The notes under the pieces were generated by a model, which had not been told where the DNA came from, made no database searches, and worked only from the letters and a program-made list of their open reading frames with translations. From Candidatus Altimarinota bacterium (GTDB taxonomy: Bacteria; Patescibacteriota; Gracilibacteria; UBA1369), in contig JBGSVP010000001.1 of NCBI GenBank assembly GCA_041752875.1, forward strand, positions 62,872-126,871: a stretch of DNA of 64,000 bases. Reading direction: 5' to 3'. Both the position numbers and the translations under genes were made by a program. How positions within the stretch are numbered: position 1 is the stretch's first letter; every line of letters begins with the position of its first letter. Of this stretch, positions 8,978 to 31,617 are shown one piece after another.

Positions 8978-9544
8978 TCAGGCAGTAAGGTTAAGCAGTC
9001 CGAAAGTGCCGTCTTCACGCCTGTAGACCACGTTAAAATTATTGTTATCCGAATTCACGAAAGCGTAAAACCCGTGACCAAGCAGTTCAAGCTGTTCTAT
9101 CGCCTCTTCTTCGTGCATCAGAGACGCTTTAAATGTCTTTCTCTTTACGATAGGCGAAGTCTCCACTCCGACGTCCTGGGTTGAAGAGATTTCCTCCAGT
9201 GTAGAGGCCGGGATCCATTTTCCACCCATATCACGGCGGTTTCTTTTCGATTTGTATCTTTCCAACTGTTTTTTCAGCTTATCGACAGCCAAATCCATAC
9301 CTTCCTCCACAGTAGTCGCATAAACTTCCGCGCGGACCACCGCATGAGGCACGAACATGGTTACTTCCACGGTTATATTCTTATTGGAAGTCTTATTGGA
9401 ATTTACCTCTACATCTACCCTGACCTGCGTAGACTCATCATCAACCCGTTCCCCAAGAGTCCCCAGATTTTCAATCTTTCCGTTTATATAATCCTTCTGA
9501 AAATCGTTTAGGCTCAAATTCTTTTCCACAATCGTGACTTGCAT
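8978..9544 (-). CDS. hpf: ribosome hibernation promoting factor (long HPF/RaiA type)
   Basis: 188 aa. The N-terminal sigma-54-modulation/S30EA fold pattern is present (MQVTIVEKNLSL...DYINGKIENL...VRVDVEV...VTMFVPHAVVRAEV). The C-terminal dimerisation extension is also present (LMHEEEAIEQLELLGHGFYAFVN). Confidence 0.9.
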   Translation of the reverse strand: MQVTIVEKNLSLNDFQKDYINGKIENLGTLGERVDDESTQVRVDVEVNSNKTSNKNITVEVTMFVPHAVVRAEVYATTVEEGMDLAVDKLKKQLERYKSKRNRRDMGGKWIPASTLEEISSTQDVGVETSPIVKRKTFKASLMHEEEAIEQLELLGHGFYAFVNSDNNNFNVVYRREDGTFGLLNLTA

Positions 9545-9576
9545 ATGAAAAACTTAAAGAAATTAAATGCGAAAGC

Positions 9577-9604
9577 ATTATAACAGTTTGGATTTTATAT
9601 TCAA
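9577..9604 (-). promoter_or_regulatory. predicted sigma-70 promoter of hpf and the downstream minus-strand gene string
   Basis: Minus strand reads TTGAAT, a 16-nt spacer, then TGtTATAAT (extended -10). The -10 ends about 33 nt upstream of the hpf ATG at 9544. Confidence 0.5.
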
Positions 9605-9649
9605 CTTGGTAGAGATGGCTTATATAAAAGATAGCCTATTGCACCTCGT

Positions 9650-9678
9650 TTGACGATTACCGCGATTTTTGCTATAAT
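9650..9678 (+). promoter_or_regulatory. predicted consensus sigma-70 promoter of the giant-protein module
   Basis: TTGACG (9650-9655), 17-nt spacer, TGcTATAAT (TG at 9670-9671, TATAAT at 9673-9678). This is 31 nt upstream of the ATG at 9710. Confidence 0.6.
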
Positions 9679-9709
9679 TTATCGATAAAAAATATAACCT
9701 AAAAAGACA

Positions 9710-10177
9710 ATGCCATTGGAAACGAAAAACAAACCGGAAGAAAACGCCAAAGCGATACCTTTGCCGAAAGACACAGAAATAGAGTTCAGCGGCGATTTGG
9801 ATAAAGATTTGGATAAAATCACAAGACTTTCATTCAAAAAAGAAGCCTATGAAGAGATACACGAAGATTTCATAAATAGCCTCAAAAAATCGATTGGCAT
9901 AATGGCCGGAGACAAAACTCCAAAAGAAATATGGGAATACCTGCAAAAAGCGGGATGCCAAAAAATTAAATTGGAAAAAGGCGCAATGAGCTACTACGAC
10001 GAAAAAGGGAAAGAGATGAAAACAAATTACAGGGAAAACAGAGAAGAAGTAAAAAGAGACAACACAAAAGCCCGCATGGACCTGATAGCGCAATTCAATT
10101 TCCCGAAGCCGAACTTTCCGAGGGCCCAGGCGGGAGATGAGGCATCAAGTAAGGAAACCGTAAACAAAGAGGCCTAA
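9710..10177 (+). CDS. hypothetical 155-aa protein, stand-alone copy of the N-terminal module of the downstream giant protein
   Basis: Long ORF directly downstream of the consensus promoter. It shares the motif IWEYLQKAGCQKIKLEKGAMSYY with the next two genes. Lys/Glu-rich, with no signal peptide. Confidence 0.7.
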   Translation: MPLETKNKPEENAKAIPLPKDTEIEFSGDLDKDLDKITRLSFKKEAYEEIHEDFINSLKKSIGIMAGDKTPKEIWEYLQKAGCQKIKLEKGAMSYYDEKGKEMKTNYRENREEVKRDNTKARMDLIAQFNFPKPNFPRAQAGDEASSKETVNKEA

Positions 10178-10207
10178 CAACAAACAAAAAATTTAATTTA
10201 AAACGAT

Positions 10208-10690
10208 ATGGCGACAAAAAACAAAAAAACGACAATGTCCGATAGGGCCCAAACAAGAGTTAAAAAAGAAAACCGATGGCAGATATTTGAAGCGGAGGCA
10301 AAGTTTATTAGCGGGGATATGGCCAAATGCCTAAAGACCCTTGCGGACGCAATATTCCCTAACAACGAATATAACAGCCAGATATATCAGGAAGCCATAG
10401 CCGGTTCACTAATAGAGACCATAAGTCCGGATTTGGGAATCTACGATTTCTGGAAAGCTTTAAAAAAAGACGATTGCGAAACGGTTAAGATTGAAAACGG
10501 TCATATGAATTTCTATACAAAAAAATCCACAAAAATCGACATAACAAAATATACCCAGCCGATAATCTTCCCTGCGACATCTTCTTTGGATGAACAAAGA
10601 AAAATGGAACGAACAAAAAAGATAGCGGAGGCAAAAAAACAATTGGAAGAACTGATAAAAGAAATCAAAAACAAAAAAATAACAAAATAA
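10208..10690 (+). CDS. hypothetical 160-aa protein, second stand-alone paralogue of the giant-protein N-terminal module
   Basis: Shares AKF...L, QIYQEAI and FWKALKKDDCETVKIENGHMNFY with residues about 60-140 of the 2,022-aa protein. Only a 10-nt gap separates it from the next gene. Confidence 0.7.
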   Translation: MATKNKKTTMSDRAQTRVKKENRWQIFEAEAKFISGDMAKCLKTLADAIFPNNEYNSQIYQEAIAGSLIETISPDLGIYDFWKALKKDDCETVKIENGHMNFYTKKSTKIDITKYTQPIIFPATSSLDEQRKMERTKKIAEAKKQLEELIKEIKNKKITK

Positions 10691-10700
10691 CAAAAAAAAT

Positions 10701-13700
10701 ATGTACTCTCCCAAAAGCAATATAAAAAAAGAATGGGACAACATTACCGTCCAAGGCACTATCTTCCACAATGGAAGAATCATCATGAATACACCTGAAA
10801 AACAACCCTGTGTCGAAAGCCAAGAGACCGGATCGGAAAAAGGGAAAGTAATGGATTTGATGACATTAAAAAGCAGCGCCAAATTCGAAAAAGACGCGGA
10901 AAAGACACTTGATAAACTATCCAAAGGCAATGAGACCAATAAAAATCAAATCAGGGAAGCCATTCAGGAAAATCTGTATAACCAGGACTATAAGGAATAC
11001 CAATCAAAAAACAGAAAAGAAACAAGCAGCCTGAACGAACTATTTGAAGATTTTTGGAAAGAGCTGGAAAAAAACGGATGCAATACGGTAAAAATCGAAG
11101 AAGGAAGGATCAAATTTCTGAAAGACAATGTAGATGTAGCTCCAAAGCAGAACCGCGTCGCAATCAAAGTGGATTTAAGCCGCTTCATTACGGATGCGCC
11201 TGAAAGCACCATTTACAACAGCGAAACCGGAGTCATCTCCTTTAAAGACAGCAAAGAAGAGAAAGAAAAAAGGATAGACGACATAATCGTCAATCCCGTA
11301 GAAGGAACCCGAATAAAGATATCGAAAAACACAAAAGACGCAGCTGCCGGCAAATTCAGGATTGCGATGTTTACCGAAGGAGAAGATGGCTTTACCGCGT
11401 ATTATTGCGACAAAGAAGGAAAACCGATCATCAACGAAAGAGTAAAGATATATAAGGATAATGTCGTAAAACTGGAATCACAACCGACAAAGAAAGAAAA
11501 ACAGACCGGCTCGGATATATATATAAACGGAGAGCCGTACACTCGCATAGGAAGCGTAAAGAAGAGTCAAAACTTCACTTACGAACAGATAGCGAAAGAA
11601 ATCCTTTCGAATCCAAACCAATCGCTAATCTCTTCCGGTGTAGCAAAAATGGTCAAAGATAGCGCAATAACCCTAGACGAATACGCCGAACTTTTGAGCG
11701 AAGCCCATATAGCCGCTGGAAACGGCGATTTGATGCTGATAGTCATGCCGCATGAAAACAGAGCCAGGAAGACGGCAACAAAAAAAGCCGCAGACACTAA
11801 GAAAGAAACCGAACAGACAGAAGCGATTGACCGAGGACAAAGACAAGATGCCGAAAAAGCACTTACCGCAAGATATGACCGCACATTAGGTATGATACGA
11901 GCTCAAAAAAGAGGTGAATCCTTCGAGGATGAAGGAGTCGAAAGAAAAATAGACAGAACAATGGAAAAACTTATCGCCAACAAAGATGCCTGGGACAAGG
12001 CATGGAAAGAAGACGAAATTCAGGGACTCGAAGAAATCAGGAACATCGTCAAGATGTACCCCAAACTGTTCGGCAAAATAAGCCAGAACCCAGATTTGTT
12101 GAGAGACAAAATCTACGACGCTGTGAAAGAAGGAAAAAAAGACAACATATATCCCCAGGATATAATCAAAAAATTGGATATAAAACTACCTAATGGAAAA
12201 GACTACGGAGAACTGCTTGCCCAATCGACAATCTACCCGAATGGCAATGCGGAACAGGAAAAACTGCTTAAAGAAGCAACAGACATAACCATACCTATCG
12301 AACAACTGACCGACGCCATCGGTGCATTAAGTTACGGGACAAAACCCCGCACGGAAAAAGTCAGGACAGCAGAAACGGGCAAAGAACACGCACTGAAAGT
12401 TAAAGTCGATATGGCCAGATTCGGAAACGAATTCACAAGCATATCCAAACTGGAATCGCTTTCCGGGGCAGAGGAAGTCCCGGGAATCCCGATAGATCAC
12501 CTGGAAACGAAAGGCAACGACTATATACCAAGAATGAGACAGATGGCTACTGCTCTTGGAATTCCGGCAAGCCAATTCAAGATACCTCAAGATGAAGGCA
12601 AGAATCTTATAAAAAACGATGCAGTAAGAGCAAATATCATATATAAAGGACAAAGATTGAGCATCAAATTGGATAGAAGCTCGGGATGGGCACGAACCTA
12701 CATCGCCGCCGGCTTCGACAATAAGAACTTCGGAGACGATTATATATCATCCGACTGGAGCAATCCCACATCGGAAAATTTCACACGAAAATTCGACGAC
12801 AAGCTTAAAGGACTGAAATCAGAACTTAGCAACATGCGCGCTACCCCGGACGAAAGAGGAATCATCCCTAACGCAGGAGCTTTAGATGAGTTCAACGCAA
12901 ACTATCTGGAATCGAAAAATTACGACAAGATGTATGCCCTTTCACGCGACCAATTAACAGAACTTGTCTTTACTTTATATACCTTCGAACAGCTGGTAAA
13001 AGAAAATTGCATTGCCCAAGTGGAAGGTGAACCGAACCGGTTCGTCCTAATAAGGTTACCGGCAAAAATGAAGCAGAAACCTCTTCCTGAAGAAATCAAA
13101 CAGGCTGCCATCGCGGTCAAATTAAGAGAGTCCGCCGGAAAAGAGAAAGTCAAAAAAGCCCAGGAAACACTAAATCCAAATCTGTCATATCTAAGAAGAC
13201 TAAAGAAACTGTTCCCCGGAATCGCCCGTTTCGACGACAAAGGGAACAAAATAAACATGGCTGAAATGAGAGCAAAAGCAGACAAAGGAGGACAAAAAAG
13301 CGCCGAGGCGGACGATATCTTCTTCAAAAACTACGATGGAAACGCCGCGATGGTCATCTTCCTTGACCAGGTACTCGACAAAAAAGCCGACGGAAACGAA
13401 TCGATAGATGTAGCCAAAGCAAATAGCTTACTTACCGAATATTACAGAAAAGGAGCAGAAAAGATAAGAAACATGCCTGAACCTGTCACTGAAAGATACA
13501 AAGCTACACAGAAAGAGCTCAAAAATGACTTCAGACAAGATTTAAGAAATAGACCTATCGACATCAACAAAGACCTTGCCGAATGGGACATACACATCAT
13601 ACAAGTCGGATTCGTTGAAGATGAAGCCGCAAAAGAAGTAAAACAAGACGAAAAGCTCAACGAAATGATAGAAAAGATGGCAAAAGAAGTAGGCAACAAT

Positions 13701-16700
13701 CCTGAACTTTTACGCAAGCTGCAAGCGATGTACAGCAGGATCACCGGACCGAAACTGGAAAAAGCGCTAAAACAGTTACCGATAGGTATATTATTAAGTT
13801 ATCAGCGCACAGCCGAAAAGAACAATATTGTAGGACTACATACTCCGATTATGCTTCCATTTCCAGATGAAAACATTAATCTGGTATTAATCCCCGGCAT
13901 AAGCACCGATGACCGCGCAAGTATCGCCATCGGAATTTCCGACAGAGCTAAGGCTACCGACAGGATAACACTAGTGGGTGGATTTAGCATGGGAGTGAGT
14001 GGAGGAAAAGGAGGACTGGGAACTCCCCTCGCCCTAAGCGGAGGAATCGAAACACGCATCTACACCGCAGACAAAGACGGTAACTACAACCACTTCCTGG
14101 GCATCCGGGCGGGCGCGGGAGTCGACCTTTCAAAGGGTACATTGGGCATAAACTTCGGTCCATACCACAAATGGGACGTGGATGCTCAGAAAAAATACGA
14201 CAACGGACTGAACGAAAAGATGCAGGAAAAAGGAATCAAAGAGTTCAAAGACCGGCTCGAAAAAATATATGAGAAAGGAGTAAACAAGAAGGAAATGGAC
14301 CAGCTGGCAAACGACATCAAAGCTTCCCCTATCGCAACTGAACTCAAACTGGAACCCAATGCCACAACCGAACAGACAATAGCCTCATTCAAAAATTATG
14401 TAGCCTTGTTTATAGGCAAATTCACAAAAGATTTCTCCCTTGGATTAATCAGCGGAGGAGAAATAGGATTATCAATAAGCGAAGGACTATTGATAGTAAG
14501 CGGGGCCGTAACCGGAAACGTCCCCGTAGTAATCGGAACAACAAGCAAATGGGCGATAGGACTATTAGCCTCGCTAAAAATCAATATCGATTCCCGAATC
14601 ACGATGGGCACGACACAAACTACTTCCGACGAAAAGATGAGCGCGCACGCAGAATCTAAAATTCTGGACTACTTCAACGAAGAGTTCAATAAAGACTTCG
14701 ACAGAAGCACTGCAGAAAAAGGATTGGAAATATCCGGGAAAAACAAGAATAAAGAATCAGGCAAAATCAGGACAACAGAATCGGTCAACGGTAAACTTAC
14801 GGAACTGGATGCCGGAACCAACATAGAAAAATACAACGAAGGACTTAAAGAAATAGGATTAAAACTCACTGTGACTCCATCAAAACTGGTGGAAATCGAA
14901 TTTCTGAAATCGATGACGGACGGCAACATCAAAGTCATCATAGGCCCAGAAGTGGCGGTGTTACAAGACGGGCGTCTATTCATGAAAGACCCGAACAGTC
15001 TGCGCAATCTGTATTTCAGCAGACAAAACAAGCCTTATCCGTTCGAAGACAGACACGGAGCATACAAAGACTCGGTAATATTACTTTCCACCAACAAATT
15101 CCTTACCGAAAACGGACAATTCCGATTACCACAAGATATAGTTCTAATGAAAAACAAAGGAGAATCTGAATACTCTATAATTAAAGAAGGGAAAAAAGAA
15201 AAACCGCAAGCCGTAATCGAAAGCAAAATCCCGAAAATGACAACGGCGGGAATCAGAAACGCGAATGACGCGTCTGACAGAGCTCTTTATGGAGGAGAAG
15301 AAAGCAAAGAAGAAGTCCGTGAAAACATCAAAGAACTGGCGGCAAAACTTTACCGTTTCAAAAACAGCAGAGGTGAAACATTCCTTTCCATAACCAACCA
15401 GGATGGGAAAGATGTAAAAGACCGCCCCTCATATACAAAAGAAGACCTGTTCAAATTCTTCGATGAATTTACACAGAAAGAAGGAATCAATAACCTTAAC
15501 GGTACAGAAAAAGAACAGCTGATGGTCGAATGCTCCACGCTCCGCTACACCGAACTTAAAGGAATGGGCCGCGGCCCCGAAGCACTCAAGAAAAGACTGG
15601 AATGGGCACGCGATTTCGTACTCAAACCGTTCTTCGAAAAAAGAATCGAAGACCTGGGCAAACAAGGAATAAAGATAGCCAATTCAGCAGACAGACTTGC
15701 TCAAAAGGCCATCGACGACATTTCAGGTATCAGCATCAACCAGAATCCGTCCAAACTCGAACTCGGAACATCGACGGCAGTGGCCATCGGCCGATACGGA
15801 AAAGGCAAAGAAGGCGGATTGAACCAACTTCTGAACGGAGGAACGGACAATAATCCGTACGGCTACATAATAGGAAAAGACTACACCGAAGCTCTTAACA
15901 CGAAACAACCGGCAGAAGACTACGAATTGGCTCTTTTGCTAAAAGAACAAGTCGCACCTTTAGGCAGACTGGATACATCAAGAGAAATGGCTCCGAAAGA
16001 CATAGAAGCATTCATGGAAAACCCTTTCACCCGAAAAGTGGCATCCTTACACCACCTTATATTTATCCTTGGAGAAAAGAAATACAAAGGATTGACCGAT
16101 TACTACAGCAAAGGAGAGACAAAGAATAACCAGGAAGCTATCAAAGCCTTTGCCGACCTGGTTAAATGGATCAGAGCCGAAACAGACGCCGGCCACGAAA
16201 GCGCAATCCATGAAGACAAAGAAACCGGACTAAAATACCTGTTCACATTCCGCCACAAGATTCAGACCGGAGTATTCAACAAATGCGGAAACTTCGCTAT
16301 CACAAACAACGACGAGATAGGAGTAAAGCTTATTCAGCCGGAAGAAGGCGGCCCGTCGATCTACAGCGCAAAGGGCGAAGCCATGACATCGGTAACGACG
16401 AAACTCTACAAAGAATTCCTCGCTTTATGGGGAGGAGTATCGGCGAGCATCGCTATACCGGAAAAGGTAAAAGTAAAAGAAACCCCACCGGAAAAAAAGG
16501 GTGAAGGAGAACCACCGAAGGAGGAAACACCACCGCCTAAAACAGATGAACCGAAACTGGGATTACCAGGGAGTGGAGATAGGATTAAAGCAGCAGAACC
16601 GAAACTGGGATTACCGGGGAGTGGAGATAGGATTAAAGCAGCAGAACCAACTCCCGGACAAGGAGGAGAAGTAGTAGTCGGCCCGGGAAGCGAAAAACCC

Positions 16701-16769
16701 GATTCCGGATCATCGACCCCCGCACCTGCTGAACCACCAAAAGATGGAGAACAAGCTGCCGATCAATGA
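10701..16769 (+). CDS. giant (2,022 aa) highly charged protein of unknown family, with central Gly-rich hydrophobic segments and a Pro-rich repeat tail
   Basis: Uninterrupted 6-kb ORF. No signal peptide and no repeat family I recognise (no YD, RTX or HEAT-like periodicity seen). The start is ambiguous: in-frame ATGs at 10785 and 10851 are also possible. Confidence 0.85.
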   Translation: MYSPKSNIKKEWDNITVQGTIFHNGRIIMNTPEKQPCVESQETGSEKGKVMDLMTLKSSAKFEKDAEKTLDKLSKGNETNKNQIREAIQENLYNQDYKEYQSKNRKETSSLNELFEDFWKELEKNGCNTVKIEEGRIKFLKDNVDVAPKQNRVAIKVDLSRFITDAPESTIYNSETGVISFKDSKEEKEKRIDDIIVNPVEGTRIKISKNTKDAAAGKFRIAMFTEGEDGFTAYYCDKEGKPIINERVKIYKDNVVKLESQPTKKEKQTGSDIYINGEPYTRIGSVKKSQNFTYEQIAKEILSNPNQSLISSGVAKMVKDSAITLDEYAELLSEAHIAAGNGDLMLIVMPHENRARKTATKKAADTKKETEQTEAIDRGQRQDAEKALTARYDRTLGMIRAQKRGESFEDEGVERKIDRTMEKLIANKDAWDKAWKEDEIQGLEEIRNIVKMYPKLFGKISQNPDLLRDKIYDAVKEGKKDNIYPQDIIKKLDIKLPNGKDYGELLAQSTIYPNGNAEQEKLLKEATDITIPIEQLTDAIGALSYGTKPRTEKVRTAETGKEHALKVKVDMARFGNEFTSISKLESLSGAEEVPGIPIDHLETKGNDYIPRMRQMATALGIPASQFKIPQDEGKNLIKNDAVRANIIYKGQRLSIKLDRSSGWARTYIAAGFDNKNFGDDYISSDWSNPTSENFTRKFDDKLKGLKSELSNMRATPDERGIIPNAGALDEFNANYLESKNYDKMYALSRDQLTELVFTLYTFEQLVKENCIAQVEGEPNRFVLIRLPAKMKQKPLPEEIKQAAIAVKLRESAGKEKVKKAQETLNPNLSYLRRLKKLFPGIARFDDKGNKINMAEMRAKADKGGQKSAEADDIFFKNYDGNAAMVIFLDQVLDKKADGNESIDVAKANSLLTEYYRKGAEKIRNMPEPVTERYKATQKELKNDFRQDLRNRPIDINKDLAEWDIHIIQVGFVEDEAAKEVKQDEKLNEMIEKMAKEVGNNPELLRKLQAMYSRITGPKLEKALKQLPIGILLSYQRTAEKNNIVGLHTPIMLPFPDENINLVLIPGISTDDRASIAIGISDRAKATDRITLVGGFSMGVSGGKGGLGTPLALSGGIETRIYTADKDGNYNHFLGIRAGAGVDLSKGTLGINFGPYHKWDVDAQKKYDNGLNEKMQEKGIKEFKDRLEKIYEKGVNKKEMDQLANDIKASPIATELKLEPNATTEQTIASFKNYVALFIGKFTKDFSLGLISGGEIGLSISEGLLIVSGAVTGNVPVVIGTTSKWAIGLLASLKINIDSRITMGTTQTTSDEKMSAHAESKILDYFNEEFNKDFDRSTAEKGLEISGKNKNKESGKIRTTESVNGKLTELDAGTNIEKYNEGLKEIGLKLTVTPSKLVEIEFLKSMTDGNIKVIIGPEVAVLQDGRLFMKDPNSLRNLYFSRQNKPYPFEDRHGAYKDSVILLSTNKFLTENGQFRLPQDIVLMKNKGESEYSIIKEGKKEKPQAVIESKIPKMTTAGIRNANDASDRALYGGEESKEEVRENIKELAAKLYRFKNSRGETFLSITNQDGKDVKDRPSYTKEDLFKFFDEFTQKEGINNLNGTEKEQLMVECSTLRYTELKGMGRGPEALKKRLEWARDFVLKPFFEKRIEDLGKQGIKIANSADRLAQKAIDDISGISINQNPSKLELGTSTAVAIGRYGKGKEGGLNQLLNGGTDNNPYGYIIGKDYTEALNTKQPAEDYELALLLKEQVAPLGRLDTSREMAPKDIEAFMENPFTRKVASLHHLIFILGEKKYKGLTDYYSKGETKNNQEAIKAFADLVKWIRAETDAGHESAIHEDKETGLKYLFTFRHKIQTGVFNKCGNFAITNNDEIGVKLIQPEEGGPSIYSAKGEAMTSVTTKLYKEFLALWGGVSASIAIPEKVKVKETPPEKKGEGEPPKEETPPPKTDEPKLGLPGSGDRIKAAEPKLGLPGSGDRIKAAEPTPGQGGEVVVGPGSEKPDSGSSTPAPAEPPKDGEQAADQ
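16548..16643 (+). repeat. perfectly in-frame 48-nt tandem duplication (2 units plus a 5-nt partial third) encoding EPKLGLPGSGDRIKAA
   Basis: Units at 16548-16595 and 16596-16643 differ at a single synonymous position (cca versus ccg). The next bases (gaacc) begin a third unit. Confidence 0.9.
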
Positions 16770-16804
16770 TTTTGAAATCATAATTAATTTTTGAATTAAT
16801 CAAA

Positions 16805-17023
16805 ATGCATAAACATAAAATTAAAACCCATAAAAAATATAATCTATATCTAATAATAGCGATAATCATCGCAAGTTTCTTGTTTGCACTATGGATAATA
16901 AAGTTCGATACCAATAAACAGACAAATAACATTCAAGCTGGAAGCATAAACCCAAATCCAGGAAATCCGACGAGCACCCCCGCTGTTGAAATACCTAAAC
17001 AAGGAGAACAAATACCTGACTAA
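16805..17023 (+). CDS. small (72 aa) single-pass membrane protein
   Basis: Basic N-terminus MHKHKIKTHKK, one hydrophobic helix LYLIIAIIIASFLFALWII, then a polar Pro/Asn-rich tail. Positioned between the two giant genes on the same strand. Confidence 0.5.
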   Translation: MHKHKIKTHKKYNLYLIIAIIIASFLFALWIIKFDTNKQTNNIQAGSINPNPGNPTSTPAVEIPKQGEQIPD

Positions 17024-17099
17024 ACAACATCAGTTAAAAACTCGTATATCCCATTATTGCCGACTATAAAAATCAATTGAAATATAATAAAAAACAAAA

Positions 17100-20000
17100 A
17101 TGAAAATACAAAAACATAAAAATCTAGTACTAAAAATACTATTTACGGCAATATCGCTAACGTTTTTCGTAAACACAGCAAATGCGGCCAAGCTAAATAT
17201 CACACGTCAACTATGTGATCTGGCTGTTTTTCCATGGAATATTACAGTAAGTGCCAATTACGATGAAGCGCTAAGACCATGGATTAACAAAGTCAGTGAA
17301 AGCGTATGTAAAAATCATTTAACTATACCTACTTCCTCTCCATACACGGCGCAACCATACACTCCTAATTCAAACAACTATTCAAGCATAACCGACACTT
17401 CAGATATTCCTTTAATAACAGGTGCAGAAGAAAAACACGGGCCAAAAGCAGAACATACACATGATTACTTCAATGACTCACTACAGGATGATTTTTACTA
17501 CGAATCTATGGTAGCAAAATTTGCCATAGATTTCGCCCCTGATACTAAAGTGAATATCAATAAAATCGAATGCGTAACTACATATCCTAAAAACCTGGAA
17601 AACAAATACACAATTGATCAAATAAATTCAATACTTAGTCCTTTACTTGACTGCGATGGAGAAATACAAAATGAAGATTTCTACGGTGGCATACGAGTAG
17701 AAAAAAACGAAAAAGGAGTAATATGGACATTCGGAACCCAAAAAGGATACAAATATCAACCGACAATATTGGGAAAGAACCCTGATTTAGATTCTGTAAT
17801 AAGAGAAAACATCGAAAAAAACAATCCTAAAAATAAAAACATTTCACCTTCCGATCCTAACTATCAAAAATCTAATTTCAACTCCTCGGACGAAAACTTC
17901 AGAAAATTCGGACAGAAAGTACAGCTTACCACATTCGACAACAACAATCATCCAACCAACGCTTGGAGCGCAACAACTACATCAAGAATACTGATCCGTA
18001 ATTTTGCTATAGGGAAAACCTACGCCGCTCAAAACAATAACAAATTTGGGAGCCTCAATTCCCAAGGCAAATGCGATTTTAACACAGGATGGTGCGCCCT
18101 ATTACCTTCACCTTCTGAATTTAAAGAAATAGAAAAAATAGAAGGAAAATATAATTATTTCTGGTTCCCGATTGGCACAACCTCAACCGTCTGGAAAAAA
18201 ACTCCACCCCCTCCCACTCCCCCCACCTGCTCCTCCCTCTCCCTCAACCTCACCCAAAATGGAAAAACGGTAAATACAAAGGCCGTACAACCAAATATCC
18301 CAGTCAATATATCCGTCTCCCCAAGTTTCATTCCGGCCGAAAAGTCGGTCGCACTCAACTACAAATGGTCTGCCGGAAGCGGGACCTTTGACAACGGCAA
18401 TCCTTCCAACGGGAATTACCAGACAAGCTCCTCGACAGCAACTTATGACGGAGGCTCTGACGTAGAGGTGAGAGTACAGGCATATTACGCAGATACCAAT
18501 AAAATAGCCGAACCTTGCAATGCCAAATTCAACATTCCAAAACAAACCACATCCCTAAAGTGTAATGACCTCAAAATATTGGACCAAAACAATGCGCCAA
18601 TGCCGAACATCATAGATCTGAATTCGCCTAATCCTCCCACCCGGCTCAACATGCACCTTAATGTAGATAAAGACGATAAATTAACCAATTTGAGCTATCA
18701 GTATACGTCCGAACCTTCCACAGGCACATTCACCGCGGGCGGTACGCCATCAACTTCGATTACAGCAACAAGTCCGGACCAGAATGTCATCTACACTATC
18801 CCCGCCTCACCGACTTCAGACATTACACTCATCGTAAAAGCAGTCGGAGGAACACCTTCCGGCTCAAATCTGACAGATTGCGAAGAAAAGATAATCATCA
18901 AACACAAATCCACGCCTCCGCCTTACTGTACATCGTTCTCCGTCACAGCCGAGCCCAGTCCCATATATGAAGGATCAGCACTGACAATTCTGAAAGCAAG
19001 CGGTACTTATTCTGACGGAAAACCTGTTGACCGAATAAACTGGTCAACAACAAACGGAACATTAAGCATAGGAGGAATTTGCGCCACACAACCACCCATT
19101 TTTTCTCTATCCAATCTGCCCCAGGGATGTTCCGTAAACTTCAGCAACGGCACCGTTGGAACAATTATTTCAGCCTCTGCAAACCCACCGGCGACAAATT
19201 GCGAAAAATCCGTCACCGTTGTTAAAAAACCAAACAACAATCCCCCCAAATGTACAAGACTGGAACTCACCCCAAATAGAATCAACCTCAACGAACAAAC
19301 AAACTTCACGGCAAAAGCCCATTTCATCGATTCCAATGGGAATTCTGCTAATTACGATATCACTTTAGGCTGGACCGGAAGTCCGGGAACGTTAGAGAAA
19401 ACTTCAGAAACCAAGTCAAGCGCAGAACCTTTTCTCAACAAATTTTATTCCACATCACCTGCATCAGCTAAAGTAACAGCCAAAGTCCTAAGTGTCTCCT
19501 CTGTTAATAACCCGGACTTGAGCGCATGCTACCAAGAGGTAAAGGAAACCTATGGCGGTGGCGGCGGGGGCAACAGATGCAGTAACTTCGAACTAACCAG
19601 AAAAGGTAACCAGGTCTGCATAAGCGTCAACAACTATACGGGTGAATTTACATGGATTGTAAACAACGGACCACCTTATAAGACTTCATATAGCGATAAG
19701 TGCCAAATCATCGCCACCAATTTACCTGTCCGAGCCTATGCAACCGGCTCACCCAGTGATTGTAACGACTCACTCACCCCGCCCCCTCCCCCCTCCTCCG
19801 ACAAACCTACCCTCGAAAAATACGTCAAAGGAAACCGCGGCGGATTCAACTTTAACAAACCGTCAATAGTAACGGTCCAATCCAATTACCAGGATGGCTC
19901 TAACATCTTAACCTACCAGCTCAAATTCACACCCAAAGGGATTACCTCCGCCACCATCACCGACCCGATAGCAGGAGGCATAGATGGAGAAGTATTACCT

Positions 20001-21338
20001 GCAGGCACAAAATACACAAAAGGCGGAAAGATATCATATAACGGCAATATGTCACTGCAACCGGATTTATCTATCTGCCCTTCAACCAAATACGAAACCT
20101 ATACCGAAGGAGGGAAAATAAAAACAAGATCAATCACCATGCCTGATAAAGAAAAGGTAAACTGCTACGAAGGCGACATCGGCAGTTCTCTAAAACTGTT
20201 CAAAGTATCAACACCAATCAAAATCGAATACTCGGCAAAACTTGATAGTTTAATTAAAGACAGCGTGTGCGAAGAAGGCATCGTCTGCGAAGAAAAATAC
20301 ATTAATAAAGCCACCGCCAAAGACACCAGAGTCTATGAAAACAATGAAGCAAATTTACCGGAAAAAACATATGGCACCATCACCAGCAACGAAGCCATCG
20401 TCCAGGTCTTCTGCCAATACATCCTGACCCGCGCCGCCGGCGACATCTTCCTGGAAAGCGACCTGAACTCCGGAATAGATATCAATCAATGTTCCAAATA
20501 TAAGAGCAGTACCGGAATAATCGTTGTTCCGGGAAATCCTCCTCCCCCGAATACTCCAAGCACCGGACTTCCCGCCAACAAGATATTCAGTATAAGCCAC
20601 GAAATCTGTTCCATGGGACAAGCAGGAACACTAAATTCCGATTTGCAAGAATTCTACGGCCAATCCGTTTCCAATAAACTTTCCAGCCAAATCTGCGAAG
20701 TAAAACTGCGCCCGGGCGAAGCCTGGCAGAAAACTTCCATTGCTAACAACATCGAAGAAAACAAGACCAGAATAGCAAGATGGGAAACCCTCAACGCCGA
20801 GGATTTATCATCACTGCTATTAAGGTATCCTGACAATAAGGTATACCGAATTACCGATGGCGACCTTACCGTAAACAGCGAAGTAACAATCCCTTCCGGA
20901 GCAAGAACATTCATCATCGAAAACCACGACCTGATAATCGGACAAGACATCAAATACGACAACACCACTTCCATAAACTCCATCCAGGAAACACCTTCAG
21001 TCGCATTCATAGTCCTGAACGGAAACATATATATAGATAAGAACGTAAAAGAACTGGCAGGAGTTTACTTCGTTCAAAAAGGTGACAGGACTGACTCCGG
21101 AAAACTATACTCCGGAACCGGCCCGACTAACAAAGATGTCACTTCGACCAGTCTCCTAACCATCTACGGCTCCGTTTACGGTGACATCCAGCCTCTCTTC
21201 ATGAAGAGGACTTTCGCCGGCGATCCGTCCGAAAACAATGCCGCCATCACCATCCGATTCGACCAGCGCATCATACTCAACACACCCCCGGGACTGCGGG
21301 AAATGCTTAATCTTACGGAAAGCGACGTAGCCCGATAA
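17100..21338 (+). CDS. secreted / cell-surface 1,412-aa protein with five Cys-bracketed modules and a DUF11-like C-terminal region
   Basis: Sec-type signal peptide MKIQKHKNLVLKILFTAISLTFFVNTANA. Five modules each begin and end with a Cys and are separated by Pro- or Gly-rich linkers. A TLEKYVKGN...ILTYQLKF...ATITDPIAGG segment resembles the DUF11 / conserved-repeat-domain pattern. Confidence 0.85.
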   Translation: MKIQKHKNLVLKILFTAISLTFFVNTANAAKLNITRQLCDLAVFPWNITVSANYDEALRPWINKVSESVCKNHLTIPTSSPYTAQPYTPNSNNYSSITDTSDIPLITGAEEKHGPKAEHTHDYFNDSLQDDFYYESMVAKFAIDFAPDTKVNINKIECVTTYPKNLENKYTIDQINSILSPLLDCDGEIQNEDFYGGIRVEKNEKGVIWTFGTQKGYKYQPTILGKNPDLDSVIRENIEKNNPKNKNISPSDPNYQKSNFNSSDENFRKFGQKVQLTTFDNNNHPTNAWSATTTSRILIRNFAIGKTYAAQNNNKFGSLNSQGKCDFNTGWCALLPSPSEFKEIEKIEGKYNYFWFPIGTTSTVWKKTPPPPTPPTCSSLSLNLTQNGKTVNTKAVQPNIPVNISVSPSFIPAEKSVALNYKWSAGSGTFDNGNPSNGNYQTSSSTATYDGGSDVEVRVQAYYADTNKIAEPCNAKFNIPKQTTSLKCNDLKILDQNNAPMPNIIDLNSPNPPTRLNMHLNVDKDDKLTNLSYQYTSEPSTGTFTAGGTPSTSITATSPDQNVIYTIPASPTSDITLIVKAVGGTPSGSNLTDCEEKIIIKHKSTPPPYCTSFSVTAEPSPIYEGSALTILKASGTYSDGKPVDRINWSTTNGTLSIGGICATQPPIFSLSNLPQGCSVNFSNGTVGTIISASANPPATNCEKSVTVVKKPNNNPPKCTRLELTPNRINLNEQTNFTAKAHFIDSNGNSANYDITLGWTGSPGTLEKTSETKSSAEPFLNKFYSTSPASAKVTAKVLSVSSVNNPDLSACYQEVKETYGGGGGGNRCSNFELTRKGNQVCISVNNYTGEFTWIVNNGPPYKTSYSDKCQIIATNLPVRAYATGSPSDCNDSLTPPPPPSSDKPTLEKYVKGNRGGFNFNKPSIVTVQSNYQDGSNILTYQLKFTPKGITSATITDPIAGGIDGEVLPAGTKYTKGGKISYNGNMSLQPDLSICPSTKYETYTEGGKIKTRSITMPDKEKVNCYEGDIGSSLKLFKVSTPIKIEYSAKLDSLIKDSVCEEGIVCEEKYINKATAKDTRVYENNEANLPEKTYGTITSNEAIVQVFCQYILTRAAGDIFLESDLNSGIDINQCSKYKSSTGIIVVPGNPPPPNTPSTGLPANKIFSISHEICSMGQAGTLNSDLQEFYGQSVSNKLSSQICEVKLRPGEAWQKTSIANNIEENKTRIARWETLNAEDLSSLLLRYPDNKVYRITDGDLTVNSEVTIPSGARTFIIENHDLIIGQDIKYDNTTSINSIQETPSVAFIVLNGNIYIDKNVKELAGVYFVQKGDRTDSGKLYSGTGPTNKDVTSTSLLTIYGSVYGDIQPLFMKRTFAGDPSENNAAITIRFDQRIILNTPPGLREMLNLTESDVAR

Positions 21339-21364
21339 CCTGATGTAGAAAATTCAGACAACAC

Positions 21365-21407
21365 AAAAGCCCTCTGCGACAACACTTACACCGGAGGGCT
21401 TTTTATT
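21365..21407 (+). terminator. intrinsic terminator closing the giant-protein module
   Basis: Stem aaaagccctc (21365-21374) pairs with gagggctttt (21394-21403), followed by a T-rich run. It lies 27 nt after the stop codon at 21336-21338. Confidence 0.6.
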
Positions 21408-21493
21408 AGCAAACAAATACAGGGTCCGCGCAATTCAAATCCTTAACCGGAAATGCTAATCTTCCCCCGCATTACTTTTCGACAGAAAAACCG

Positions 21494-22480
21494 ATGTCCC
21501 AACCCAACCTATTCCTGTTCACCGGCGAAGACACATACACCGCGCAACAACGGCTGAAACTCTGGCGCAAAGAATTCGAAAAAAAATACGGAGAATTCAA
21601 TGTCCAGTTTTTCCAGGTCAACAAAAAGGATGACCTTACCCCAGGCGAATTCAGAAACGCCATCAACACACTACCCTTCCTTAGCGAAAAGAAACTCATA
21701 ATCATAAGCGACTATCTGGCTACAGGGAGCACGGAAGAACAGCAGGAGATAGCGGAACAACTCGACACACTGCCCGAACACTGCCTTCTTGTTTTCATAG
21801 AATCGAAAAAGCCGGATGCCCGCACGACCCTTTATAAAAGACTAACAAAAAATGGCCAGATAAAAGGATTCCCACATCTTGAACCCGGAGAGTTAAGCAC
21901 ATGGATAAGACAGGAGATGCAAAAGAAAAACGCATCCATAGGTCACCGCGAAGCCGATCTGCTCGCGGAAATGGTCGGCCCGGATCTCTGGCAGATGGCA
22001 CAGGAACTGGAAAAACTCACTATCTACTCCAACGGTTCACCAATAACCGCAAAAACCATCGAAAAGATAGTTGATCCCAATATAACCGCGTCTATCTTCA
22101 AACTTACCGACGCCATCGCCGCGAAAAACACGAAACAGGCGATAGCAATACTAAAAGCAATGGTTCGCGGCGGCGAAGACCTTTTCCAGATTTTCTACAT
22201 GATTGCCCGGCAATTTCGCATACTCCTTCAGGTAAAATCCTGCATGGATAAAAAAATGACCTCCCAGAAGATAATAGTGCAACTGAAAGAAAAACCTTTT
22301 ACCGTCACGAACAGCATGAATCAGTGCAAAAACTTCGATCTGAACAAACTAAAGACCGCTTACCGCAAAGTCCTAAATATAGATATTTCCATTAAAAGCG
22401 GAGGAATAAAGACAACAACCGATGACCAAAGCGAATTCCGCCTCGCGCTGGAAAAACTGATTATCGAACTTGCCCACTAG
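21494..22480 (+). CDS. holA: DNA polymerase III delta subunit (HolA)
   Basis: 328 aa. The N-terminus LFLFTGEDTYTAQQRL and the overall pattern (LEKLTIY...IT...IEKIV..., FKLTDAIAAKNTKQAI) are typical of HolA. Confidence 0.8.
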   Translation: MSQPNLFLFTGEDTYTAQQRLKLWRKEFEKKYGEFNVQFFQVNKKDDLTPGEFRNAINTLPFLSEKKLIIISDYLATGSTEEQQEIAEQLDTLPEHCLLVFIESKKPDARTTLYKRLTKNGQIKGFPHLEPGELSTWIRQEMQKKNASIGHREADLLAEMVGPDLWQMAQELEKLTIYSNGSPITAKTIEKIVDPNITASIFKLTDAIAAKNTKQAIAILKAMVRGGEDLFQIFYMIARQFRILLQVKSCMDKKMTSQKIIVQLKEKPFTVTNSMNQCKNFDLNKLKTAYRKVLNIDISIKSGGIKTTTDDQSEFRLALEKLIIELAH

Positions 22481-30009: not shown

Positions 30010-31617
30010 CTAGTTCTTTACTGCCTGCGGCTGGATAATTACATCGACACCGCTCCCCGGAACATCGACAACCCTTATTCCGTTTATCAAAGCCTCCTGA
30101 TTCTGTTCAACAGCAGATATTCTCTTATCCAATTTGGACAACGCGTTCTCGTAATATGCGGCAAGCTGGTCCAAAGCTCCCAACCTTGCCTTTAAGGCAG
30201 CCTGCTTTTGCACCACATCAACGAAACCCTTCAGAAGAACATCACTCTTTTCCGGCTGAAGCTCACTCATCGCCGTGAAAAAATCACCCTCATATTTGGT
30301 TTTGTCAGGAGTCAGACTGTCATAGGATAATTTGATATCGTCGATGTTTACCTTAATACTTCTGTACATCTCCAGGCTCTTTTCACGCGCCGCCTTAAGG
30401 TCAGCAAGGTAAGCGAGCAATGCCGAATCCCTTTTTAAAGTCATATCGAGCATAGCATATACATCCACCTTATAACGGTTCTGCAAAGCGGCCAGATTTT
30501 CCATATACTTCACGAATTCATTGATATCTTTGGCCTGATCCATCAATTCACCGAAATATGAAGCCGCAGTTATGCCGGTTTCCCCTTTGACTTGTGGCTC
30601 CATCAACCTCCCAAAGTAATCCGCGACTATAATCTGATTGGGGGTGTAATCTTTAACCGAACCAAAATTAGCCGCAAACAGATTTGCCGTGTTAATACCG
30701 AACATCCGCTGGTCGTTCTCACTGACATGGACCTCAATGATTTCTTCTTTCTTAGGCACAAACAAAGCCATGACCCCGTTATATGTATTATTCATCAATC
30801 CCGAATACACAAAAAAGTAACCGCCACCTACAACTAATCCTACAAAGATAAGCATAAACAGATACCTTAACCTGAACCCTCTAAAAACTCTCACCAAAAA
30901 TCCACCCATAAAAACCGCCGCCCCGGGAATACCGGACAGCAAAGACTTAACGAAAAAGAGCAATCTATCCCCAAAATCCGCCACATTCAATCCGTTTTTT
31001 ACTTTTTCCGGCTCATCACTTTTAACTTCCTCCGCCTCTATAACCTCCGGTTCATCGGGCTTAGATACCTGAACTTCTTCCACAATCGATTCATCATCAC
31101 TATTCTTATCTGTATTTTCTTCCTCCACCGGAATATTTTCTGGTTCTAAAGCCAATTTTTCATCATCACCATCCATCGCATCCTCCTCTTCGTGCAAAGA
31201 TGAAACACCCGAATTTTTAGCCGACAAATCGGCAGGGTCGAGTATAGACACCGACTGATTATCGGTTTTCTGATAAATAACGGTGTTTTGCGTATCCAAA
31301 GATTCGATATTCGATTCTTCAACAGCAAAATCAGGTTGTGAAGACGCATCTTCCGGCTTAACTTTAGAGGTATTCTCTTGAGAAATAACGTTTTCCATCG
31401 GGATTATCGGAACTTTACTTTCCGCAGACAAACCAACCTCACCTGCAGATATATTCGGCTGTCCGATTTTCCCGGCGATAACAGCATTATTTTTCCTTCG
31501 TCTTCTTCGAGGTCTCCTCCTTTTTACCGGAATACCCGCCTGCGCCGAAGAAACCTGCCCCGTCTGGCCTTGATTTTGGACTACCGAGCTGTTTTTTCCG
31601 ACATCCTGTTCAGGCAT
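30010..31617 (-). CDS. hypothetical membrane protein with an Arg-rich/acidic disordered N-terminus
   Basis: 535 aa. RRRPRRRRRK is followed by a long Asp/Glu-rich stretch, then a hydrophobic region (AAVFMGGFLV...LFMLIFVGLVVGGGYFFVY), then a roughly 270-aa C-terminal domain. It ends 5 nt upstream of the RSH gene. Confidence 0.7.
   Translation of the reverse strand: MPEQDVGKNSSVVQNQGQTGQVSSAQAGIPVKRRRPRRRRRKNNAVIAGKIGQPNISAGEVGLSAESKVPIIPMENVISQENTSKVKPEDASSQPDFAVEESNIESLDTQNTVIYQKTDNQSVSILDPADLSAKNSGVSSLHEEEDAMDGDDEKLALEPENIPVEEENTDKNSDDESIVEEVQVSKPDEPEVIEAEEVKSDEPEKVKNGLNVADFGDRLLFFVKSLLSGIPGAAVFMGGFLVRVFRGFRLRYLFMLIFVGLVVGGGYFFVYSGLMNNTYNGVMALFVPKKEEIIEVHVSENDQRMFGINTANLFAANFGSVKDYTPNQIIVADYFGRLMEPQVKGETGITAASYFGELMDQAKDINEFVKYMENLAALQNRYKVDVYAMLDMTLKRDSALLAYLADLKAAREKSLEMYRSIKVNIDDIKLSYDSLTPDKTKYEGDFFTAMSELQPEKSDVLLKGFVDVVQKQAALKARLGALDQLAAYYENALSKLDKRISAVEQNQEALINGIRVVDVPGSGVDVIIQPQAVKN

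Follow-up and report, generated by a model that had tools for sequence, protein, structure and literature searches.

A conserved gene module pairing a signal-less giant protein with a secreted giant in Peribacteria and Peregrinibacteria: a candidate cell envelope and attachment complex

The Candidate Phyla Radiation (CPR, or Patescibacteria) accounts for much of bacterial diversity, and its members appear to live attached to other cells. To our knowledge, the molecules that build such contacts are known among CPR lineages only for Saccharibacteria, and it is likewise open how these cells acquire lipids and other building blocks. The closest described systems come from genome-level studies. Peribacteria encode large, often Cys-rich extracellular proteins that are thought to mediate attachment, have surface proteins that vary between strains, and lack fatty acid synthesis and most amino acid pathways (PMC4736985). 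The related CPR predator Vampirococcus encodes giant membrane proteins that were linked to host attachment (PMC8080830). Here we describe a five-gene module in a 64,000-nucleotide stretch of DNA, referred to as the window, from a bacterium deposited as Candidatus Altimarinota (GenBank assembly GCA_041752875.1, contig JBGSVP010000001.1, positions 62,872 to 126,871, forward strand). The module encodes two small related proteins (A1 and A2), a giant protein without a signal peptide (G1), a small membrane protein, and a secreted giant protein (G2).

G2 is like the giants of Peribacteria, which belong to the same lineage, and of Vampirococcus in that it is large, Sec exported, Cys paired, variable, and presumed to function in attachment. 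However, neither a partner of the G1 type nor A proteins nor a conserved operon beside holA are described in the studies of those organisms (PMC4736985, PMC8080830). Furthermore, the Cys-rich proteins in those studies contain 7% Cys on average, and FG-GAP or similar domains are annotated in some of them, whereas G2, at 2% Cys, has no domain annotation. Taken alone, G2 would extend the giant surface proteins of CPR, a class that is only loosely defined. No described family or system corresponds to G1, to the A proteins, or to the complete module, and we found no description of this module in the literature; A, G1, and G2 are three new protein families. The interpretation that we favor, with roughly even confidence, is that the module specifies a lineage-specific cell envelope and attachment complex, of which the mechanism and the cell location of G1 are the inferred parts. 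The conserved gene order, the features of G2, a recurring membrane protein, the beta domain of G1, and the Peribacteria literature are the reasons for favoring an envelope role.

The features of the unit, with coding sequences taken from a six-frame list of open reading frames (ORFs) and product lengths in amino acids (aa), are as follows.
9650-9678, plus strand: promoter-like site (TTGACG, 17-nt spacer, TG-extended TATAAT), 32 nt upstream of A1
9710-10177, plus strand: A1, a small soluble protein of 155 aa
10208-10690, plus strand: A2, a small soluble protein of 160 aa
10701-16769, plus strand: G1, a giant of 2,022 aa without a signal peptide
16805-17023, plus strand: small membrane protein, single pass, 72 aa
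17100-21338, plus strand: G2, a secreted giant of 1,412 aa
21365-21407, plus strand: intrinsic-terminator-like hairpin (21365-21403) and U-run

Gene order, the promoter-like site, and the terminator-like hairpin indicate that the five genes are a single predicted operon. An earlier model-made reading of the same letters (the original prediction) had proposed a promoter-to-terminator unit of five plus-strand genes, and these genes and the gaps between them (30, 10, 35, and 76 nt, in order) were reproduced to the base. The promoter-like site has 11 of 12 matches and the top score within 9400-21700; it is a consensus match only, and the total of promoter-like sites across the region was not above that of shuffled controls. 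The GC-rich 12-bp hairpin lies 30 nt past the G2 stop codon and is followed by UUUUUAUU. Its calculated fold (-16.8 kcal/mol, z = -4.96) was as stable in 0 of 200 shuffles. The automatic terminator scan missed this hairpin because of its long loop and returned no plus-strand terminator-like site of any weight inside the unit. ORFs that are this long and are kept in relatives cannot be chance. The module, about 0.8% of a 1.3- to 1.5-Mb genome, has a GC content (0.39-0.46) like that of the rest of the window. No Shine-Dalgarno sequence precedes any of the five module genes, holA, or trmB, and A-rich leaders are present on all five module genes (9680-9709, 10178-10207, 10691-10700, 16770-16804, and 17024-17099) but not on holA or trmB. 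This combination suggests initiation independent of Shine-Dalgarno sequences in this organism.

The original prediction proposed a search for the same order in related genomes, and the order of a small protein, G1, in most cases a small membrane protein, and G2 recurs in about 20 of them, all independent genomes of uncultured Peribacteria/Peregrinibacteria. A word-indexed homology search with G2 returned five relatives, one of them labeled Candidatus Peregrinibacteria. On their contigs a giant ORF of 1,612 to 2,064 aa precedes G2, usually with a small ORF before the giant, holA follows G2, and the neighborhood contains HPF, Wzy, and TIM throughout. A survey with the conserved G2 C-terminal domain against one genome per Genome Taxonomy Database (GTDB) species gave 28 loci (designated here with L numbers), all in Peribacteria, Peregrinibacteria, Gracilibacteria, or unclassified Patescibacteria. 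In the standard-code clade, every locus with enough upstream sequence has a co-directional G1-family giant directly before G2 (L001 to L013 and L017 to L025; L001/L002, L003/L015, and L004/L005 are each duplicate samples of one genome). The two complete chromosomes, L012 (OZ246407) and L015 (OY970195), gave one match each. holA follows G2 at every locus that extends past the G2 end (L001 to L027). The window carries the same arrangement at the HPF/Wzy...holA locus: a G1 giant immediately precedes, on the same strand, a giant that has the G2 C-terminal domain. In the more distant code-25 Gracilibacteria and Altimarinota, the G2 C-terminal domain was the only part found, and the large proteins upstream of it fail the G1 profile. 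The complete module is specific to the Peribacteria/Peregrinibacteria lineage.

The gene order has been kept despite an identity of just 16 to 27% between G1 proteins. In the closest relative, L034, G1 is 38% identical, the A-G1-G2 order is present, and holA is inverted; in L001 the HPF-Wzy-Mur ligase block has been relocated downstream on the same strand. Across lineages with moved or inverted flanks, G1 and G2 stay adjacent and co-directional, 27 to 600 nt apart. The terminator and the inversion of holA in L034 rule out holA as a part of the unit. The genes flanking the module in the window are housekeeping genes: on the minus strand upstream, TruB, Mur ligase, a Wzy-type protein, and HPF; downstream, holA, a TrmB-type regulator, and GatA. 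No secretion system ATPase is among them, as had been predicted. The statement that the module interrupts housekeeping content was right about the flanks but wrongly implied an insertion. Its position at the same chromosomal site beside holA in about 20 genomes indicates that the module is inherited rather than mobile; it is an old, vertically inherited resident of its site.

Giant, fast-evolving genes among housekeeping genes could also encode toxins or adhesins of a known family that have diverged strongly, or belong to a mobile island, to the remains of a prophage, or to a defense system, and G2 does have a weak match to the bacterial Ig-like domain Big_1 (13.2 bits versus a cutoff of 34.9 bits, E = 0.1), which is below threshold. 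We regard such an origin as exceedingly improbable. None of the five products has a significant match in Pfam, NCBIfam, PHROGs, or PADLOC, whether as single sequences or as profiles, and the G1 and G2 profiles found only two chance-level matches among PDB sequences up to E = 10. The families of which the original prediction had recognized none (RHS/YD, RTX, cadherin, FG-GAP, and hemagglutinin types) gave no Pfam or NCBIfam match to G1 or G2 at E <= 1, and GGxGxD, YD, and LPXTG-type motifs are absent. For phage and defense functions, G1 and G2 have no match in PHROGs and none in PADLOC. No stretch of G1 is conserved enough for a scan of viral contigs; a scan of IMG/VR with the G2 C-terminal domain found no relatives on viral contigs. 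The window-like GC content and the fixed site in about 20 genomes also argue against mobility. The original prediction had named in advance what would speak against it: assignment of the giants to characterized adhesin or toxin families, absence of the gene order in relatives, or separate transcription. Instead, there was no adhesin or toxin profile match, the order is kept in about 20 genomes, and the unit has one promoter-like site and one terminator.

G2 was described in the original prediction as a Sec-signal giant built from disulfide-type modules, and this description holds. Residues 1 to 30 are a Sec signal (...TANA/AK) that is conserved in relatives, and the composition is of the extracellular type (19% charged residues; 38% S/T/N/Q/G). 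The 28 Cys residues (2%) form disulfide-type pairs that frame five modules of about 100 aa. An N-terminal domain of about 340 residues (approximately 31 to 370) is conserved and has the motifs HxHxYxN, DCDG, and WSATTTSR. It is followed by the middle modules (370-895), each of which opens with a Cys just past a Pro-rich linker and closes with a Cys. These modules, which are only 23 to 29% alike, were delimited by the Cys residues that frame them; they may have an Ig-like fold. The C-terminal domain of about 475 residues (937-1412) is 45 to 54% identical in the nearest clade. G2 orthologues range from 1,140 to 2,055 aa, with a variable number of modules between conserved N- and C-terminal domains. 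The protein has no sortase signal or C-terminal anchor and ends in ...LNLTESDVAR. An AlphaFold2 model of the C-terminal domain from three sequences was poor (predicted local distance difference test [pLDDT] of 37), with a weak solenoid-like stretch at pLDDT 65 to 83. Foldseek matches of this model to the beta-helices of pectate and alginate lyases (E >= 0.6) are not significant and are not usable evidence.

The 72-aa protein between the giants has a basic N terminus, a transmembrane segment at residues 14 to 32 (Kyte-Doolittle 2.88), and a Pro/Thr/Asn-rich tail of about 40 aa, in line with the single-pass protein originally proposed. In 16 of 20 relatives, a small ORF between G1 and G2 encodes a product that is either anchored in the membrane near its N terminus or equipped with a lipoprotein-type signal. 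These proteins are unrelated in sequence, and constant in position and topology. Most are 48 to 68 aa; the versions in L004, L009, and L024 have a lipoprotein-type signal. In a second clade, proteins of 165 to 178 aa carry an additional extracytoplasmic domain, which is conserved, rich in beta structure, and unmatched in Pfam. The second-clade versions are as follows.
L017, 7030-7560
L018, 7139-7636
L020, 4209-4733
L022, 7047-7577
L023, 7040-7576
L025, 2677-3213

G1 relatives were difficult to find. Word-indexed searches with G1 or with a four-sequence G1 alignment returned only the query itself, and the relatives required full HMMER. A full HMMER scan with G1 residues 730 to 1929 against 1.84 billion representative proteins gave 26 matches, all of the same family, either full-length proteins of about 2,000 to 2,200 aa or fragments of such proteins. 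Among 18 family members, none has a Pfam domain. G1 was expected to be Lys/Glu rich and to have Gly-rich hydrophobic segments but no signal peptide. It contains 11.3% Lys and 9.2% Glu and has such segments, and neither G1 nor any orthologue has a signal peptide or an N-terminal hydrophobic segment. Only 0.3% of its residues are Cys. The parts of G1 are as follows.
10758-11135, plus strand: N-terminal module, with a short motif (residues approximately 20 to 35) and an A-like domain (residues approximately 55 to 145)
13782-14621, plus strand: beta domain, residues 1028 to 1307, about 12 antiparallel strands, modeled at pLDDT 80 to 93
14184-14432, plus strand: helical insert of 85 residues (residues 1162 to 1244) between strands 8 and 9, conserved in the alignment
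14823-16460, plus strand: C-terminal conserved region, residues approximately 1375 to 1920, the most conserved part of the family
16461-16766, plus strand: tail, Pro/Glu/Gly rich and predicted to be disordered; pLDDT is low where the model ends

The N-terminal module connects G1 with the A proteins. Nearly all G1 orthologues have the short motif [KN]-R-h-x-[FYW] (here NGRIIM), followed by a Pro/Glu-rich stretch. A twin-arginine (Tat) signal was considered for the [KN]-R-x-x-F motif and ruled out because no hydrophobic h-region follows it. A1, A2, and G1 residues approximately 55 to 145 share the A domain (W..L.K.GC..IK.E.G...Y in A1; W..L.K.GC..VKIE.G...F in the shared form), with pairwise E values of 1e-7 (A1-A2, BLASTP), 6e-9, and 3e-5 (A1-G1). 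The original prediction of two small paralogues is thus correct, and, judged from sequence, A1 and A2 are stand-alone copies of the G1 N-terminal module. A1 has no transmembrane segment. A2 combines the A domain with the motif KKENRWQIF at its N terminus and a helix at its C terminus. It is the copy with orthologues, found directly upstream of G1 in L001, L003, L006, L008, L009, L012, L013, and L034. The small proteins of L003, L008, and L012 match positions 20 to 146 of the G1 profile, and the G1-type short motif is also present in the A proteins of L001, L003, L008, and L012 and in A2 of the window. Relatives have one A gene, and therefore the A1/A2 pair is a duplication specific to the lineage of the window. 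This arrangement is similar to that of the LXG toxins of type VII secretion systems (T7SS), in which small proteins encoded just before a large non-Sec protein are related to its N-terminal targeting region. However, the A proteins are paralogues of the G1 N-terminal region rather than helical partners, there is no WXG100 or LXG Pfam match, and the neighboring genes are housekeeping genes with no T7SS genes among them.

At the other end of G1, AlphaFold2 places a mixed beta domain, an all-alpha domain, and three long strands in the C-terminal region. Cys1862-Gly-Asn1864 (K-C-G-N; nt 16284-16292) lies at the turn of the long strands, and Cys1862 and Asn1864 do not vary in an alignment of 19 sequences or in one of 29, whereas Gly970 is invariant only in the former. 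The Pro-rich tail, which is also found in G1 orthologues, contains a 48-nt tandem duplication at 16548-16648 (2.1 copies, 98% identical) that encodes EPKLGLPGSGDRIKAA twice. Each copy includes LPGSG, which is sortase-like but is followed by hydrophilic sequence rather than by the hydrophobic and basic C-terminal signal. Because G2 has no LPXTG motif either, neither giant belongs to the sortase-anchored class.

The Gly-rich hairpin-like segments that the original prediction had pointed out in G1 were modeled as a porin-like sheet. The AlphaFold2 model of residues 980 to 1930 was built from an 18-sequence alignment (mean pLDDT 73.6). Its beta domain is a meander of strands of 10 to 17 residues joined by turns of 2 to 7 residues; after it come a helix, a disordered linker, a small mixed beta domain, the all-alpha domain, and the three very long strands. 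In ten homologues, one face of the strands had a mean Kyte-Doolittle value of +2.06 with 58% V/L/I/F, and the other a mean of -0.55 with 27% Gly, 11% Ser, and few charges. This two-faced pattern is kept in 19 of 19 aligned orthologues. The best superpositions were with KdgM (TMt, the TM-score normalized to the target, of 0.57) and NanC (TMt of 0.52), with probabilities of 0.98 to 1.0, followed by the EspP beta-domain, TamA, and OccK, all at E >= 0.03. In a viral library the best Foldseek matches were phage proteins named porin or outer membrane protein (OMP) beta-barrel, also at E >= 0.03. Like KdgM, NanC, and the EspP beta-domain, the G1 domain as modeled has about 12 long antiparallel strands, short turns, and one hydrophobic and one small-residue face. 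Unlike them, it is located in the middle of a 2,022-aa cytoplasm-like giant, has an 85-aa helical insert, and shows no sequence similarity; G1 has no Sec signal, a requirement of all outer membrane barrel families, and no Pfam or PDB sequence match to the OMP porin families (KdgM/NanC).

Another possibility for the beta domain is lipid handling, with an open hydrophobic groove or lipid-binding barrel, comparable to bridge-type lipid transfer proteins, that acquires host lipids while G2 does the tethering. One sheet face is strongly hydrophobic, Peribacteria have no fatty acid synthesis, and the 'taco-shell' sheet of FMO is the top Foldseek match by E value. However, the FMO superpositions were poor (root mean square deviation [rmsd] of 26 to 28 A, TMt of 0.18) compared with closed 12-stranded barrels (TMt of 0.52 to 0.57), and the opposite face is Gly/Ser rich rather than charged, which is ill suited to a solvent-exposed exterior. 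AsmA, TamB, and Chorein_N profiles gave no match in Pfam, and no TamB, Vps13, or Atg2 was among the Foldseek matches listed. A lipid-handling role is therefore very unlikely.

A barrel-containing protein encoded beside a giant Sec-dependent exoprotein, perhaps beta-helical in part, recalls two-partner secretion (TpsB plus TpsA). It differs in having no Omp85, POTRA, or TPS-domain match, in gene order and sizes, and in that G1 is ten times the size of its barrel. For type V secretion more broadly, there is no Autotransporter, Bac_surface_Ag, POTRA, or Haemagg_act match, and the G1 barrel is internal, in a protein without a signal peptide. G1 might instead be a contact-dependent channel or effector, exported by a non-Sec route with the motif as signal and the A proteins as adaptors, whose barrel would insert into the outer membrane of a partner or into the producer's own outer layer while G2 adheres. 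The porin-like beta domain fits this possibility, its hydrophobic face being of the lipid type and its Gly/Ser face of the lumen type, as does the conserved N-terminal motif that G1 shares with the A proteins. The Cys content of G1 (0.3%, versus 2% in G2) is like that of substrates threaded unfolded through narrow secretion channels, the Pro-rich tail could be a spacer, and these organisms depend on imported lipids and amino acids (PMC4736985). Nevertheless, a contact-dependent channel is quite unlikely. No secretion ATPase or channel gene is present in or beside the unit, the composition of G1 is cytoplasm-like throughout, and known self-inserting barrels are much smaller proteins or oligomeric toxins. 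Closure of the G1 barrel is presumed, and no host of Peribacteria is known.

The boldest version of this possibility is that G1 is a self-contained envelope-crossing giant, exported by a non-Sec route through its motif and A adaptors, with a barrel that inserts into a partner or host outer membrane that the producer itself lacks and that, with the G2 fiber, forms a feeding conduit. We consider this decidedly unlikely. If it were true, Peribacteria, unable to make lipids or most amino acids, would have a conduit through which to tap another cell. Giant orphan surface proteins are unsurprising for CPR; what is surprising is a barrel in a signal-less giant encoded in an operon with a secreted fiber. 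The organism's group is generally regarded as lacking an outer membrane. A porin-like domain in a signal-less, cytoplasm-like giant of such a lineage matches no described system and offers a testable handle.

In the favored interpretation, a cell envelope and attachment complex, G2 would be an exposed fiber, either an adhesin or a surface-layer element, and the small membrane protein would hold G2 at the membrane as an anchor or assembly factor. G1 would be the cell-side partner, with an amphipathic beta domain embedded in or resting on a membrane; the long helices of G1 and its Pro-rich tail would serve as scaffold and spacer. The A proteins may pair with the G1 N-terminal module, or compete for its partner, as an adaptor, chaperone, or assembly regulator. 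The complex as a whole would build the surface structure by which one cell attaches to another, a likely role for organisms with no synthesis of fatty acids or of most amino acids.

The terminal organelle of Mycoplasma combines the cytoplasmic giants HMW1, HMW2, and P200, which have acidic Pro-rich regions, with the P1 adhesin and the small membrane protein P30. Together with two-partner secretion it is the nearest counterpart of the module, in the logic of the parts only. Both sets comprise a signal-less giant component with Pro-rich regions (the scaffold in Mycoplasma and, by proposal, in the module), a Sec-exported giant that is a known or presumed adhesin, and a small membrane protein, in a minimal-genome bacterium living attached to other cells. 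There is no homology, with no Pfam match at E <= 1 to the terminal-organelle families (EAGR box, P1/HMW), and the Mycoplasma scaffold is not known to have a porin-like domain.

Rates of divergence also count for the envelope interpretation. In the same genomes, mean p-distances were 0.80 for G1 (best-conserved 1,000 residues), 0.64 for the G2 C terminus, 0.57 for holA, and 0.37 for GatA. Divergence of G1 and G2 that is faster than that of holA and GatA is typical of exposed or interaction proteins. A single copy at a fixed site, a class-wide gene order, and fast divergence are as expected of a core but host-facing structure.

Several observations weigh against this interpretation. Charged residues make up about 31% of G1 on both sides of the beta domain, a cytoplasm-like content, and this equality rules out a topology of G1 with the N terminus inside and the C terminus outside. 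No exporter is encoded in the unit, and we know of no precedent for a membrane-embedded beta-barrel reached from the cytoplasm. The original proposal of an envelope-spanning or contact apparatus is plausible and gained a porin-like sheet and a recurring membrane protein. The cytoplasm-like composition on either side of the barrel and the lack of an exporter in the unit lend no support to G1 leaving the cytoplasm, and contact with host or prey is conjectural. G1 residues 1028 to 1307 are modeled as an amphipathic porin-like sheet or barrel, and we infer its closure and its outward face. The predicted TM-score (pTM) of the model, 0.44, means that it does not define the arrangement of the G1 domains. 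The Pfam and Foldseek-on-AlphaFold checks suggested in the original prediction yielded no Pfam match and no significant Foldseek match for G1 980 to 1930 or the G2 C-terminal domain, and the best E value for G1 was 0.005. The small membrane protein is absent from 4 of 20 loci (L001, L010, L021, and L034), and the A gene is missing in some genomes, for example L018.

The remaining point against an envelope complex is that the whole region is syntenic in the lineage, and G1-G2 adjacency could be partly frozen gene order. G1 and the A proteins would then be a cytoplasmic scaffold or cytoskeletal element with a soluble beta domain, and G2 with its small membrane protein would be an independent adhesin. 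The surrounding housekeeping genes are equally syntenic in the same genomes, G1 and the A proteins are cytoplasm-like and without signal peptides, and code-25 Gracilibacteria and Altimarinota have the G2 C-terminal domain without a G1. A mirror-tree analysis gave no specific G1-G2 coevolution beyond shared phylogeny: the partial correlation given holA was r = 0.23, a value reached in 101 of 2,000 permutations, and control pairs had partial correlations as high or higher, with G1 distances being saturated. However, the G1-G2 pair stays adjacent and co-directional where the flanks have moved or inverted, the five genes have a single promoter-like site and a single terminator, and a 58% V/L/I/F face opposite a 27% Gly face is unusual for a soluble domain. 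Two unrelated functions held together by frozen synteny are therefore unlikely. Even if the module is only a surface-fiber operon, it provides a synteny marker for Peribacteria.

Further downstream of the module the window contains genes for RelA, H+-PPase, YceG, DnaA, RseP, PurA, GroEL, and RNase Y. dnaA (39133-40557, minus strand) is about 18 kb downstream of the module, which places the module close to the presumed replication origin. The cumulative GC skew drops steadily over the whole window, with no turning point. Two other large ORFs are located in this region, both on the minus strand: a 535-aa ORF at 30010-31617, beside relA, has no Pfam match at E <= 1e-5, and a 518-aa ORF at 37468-39024, between yceG and dnaA, has only a FecR-type domain (E = 6e-9).

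Three observations were made at other survey loci. In Altimarinota (L029, 2344-13433) and code-25 Gracilibacteria (L030 to L033), the G2 C-terminal domain is found beside other large ORFs of about 800 to 1,340 aa that have no G1 match, and these loci may be analogous modules with different partners. Two to four ORFs take the place of a single G2, G1, or holA gene in L003/L015 (OY970195, 10001-14535), L013 (355-6545), and L007 (5701-10483), probably through frameshifts from long-read assembly rather than pseudogenization. Approximately 4 kb downstream of the G2 orthologue in L004, at 18679-20034, a reverse transcriptase in two ORFs accompanies a bAvd gene, which looks like a diversity-generating retroelement cassette.

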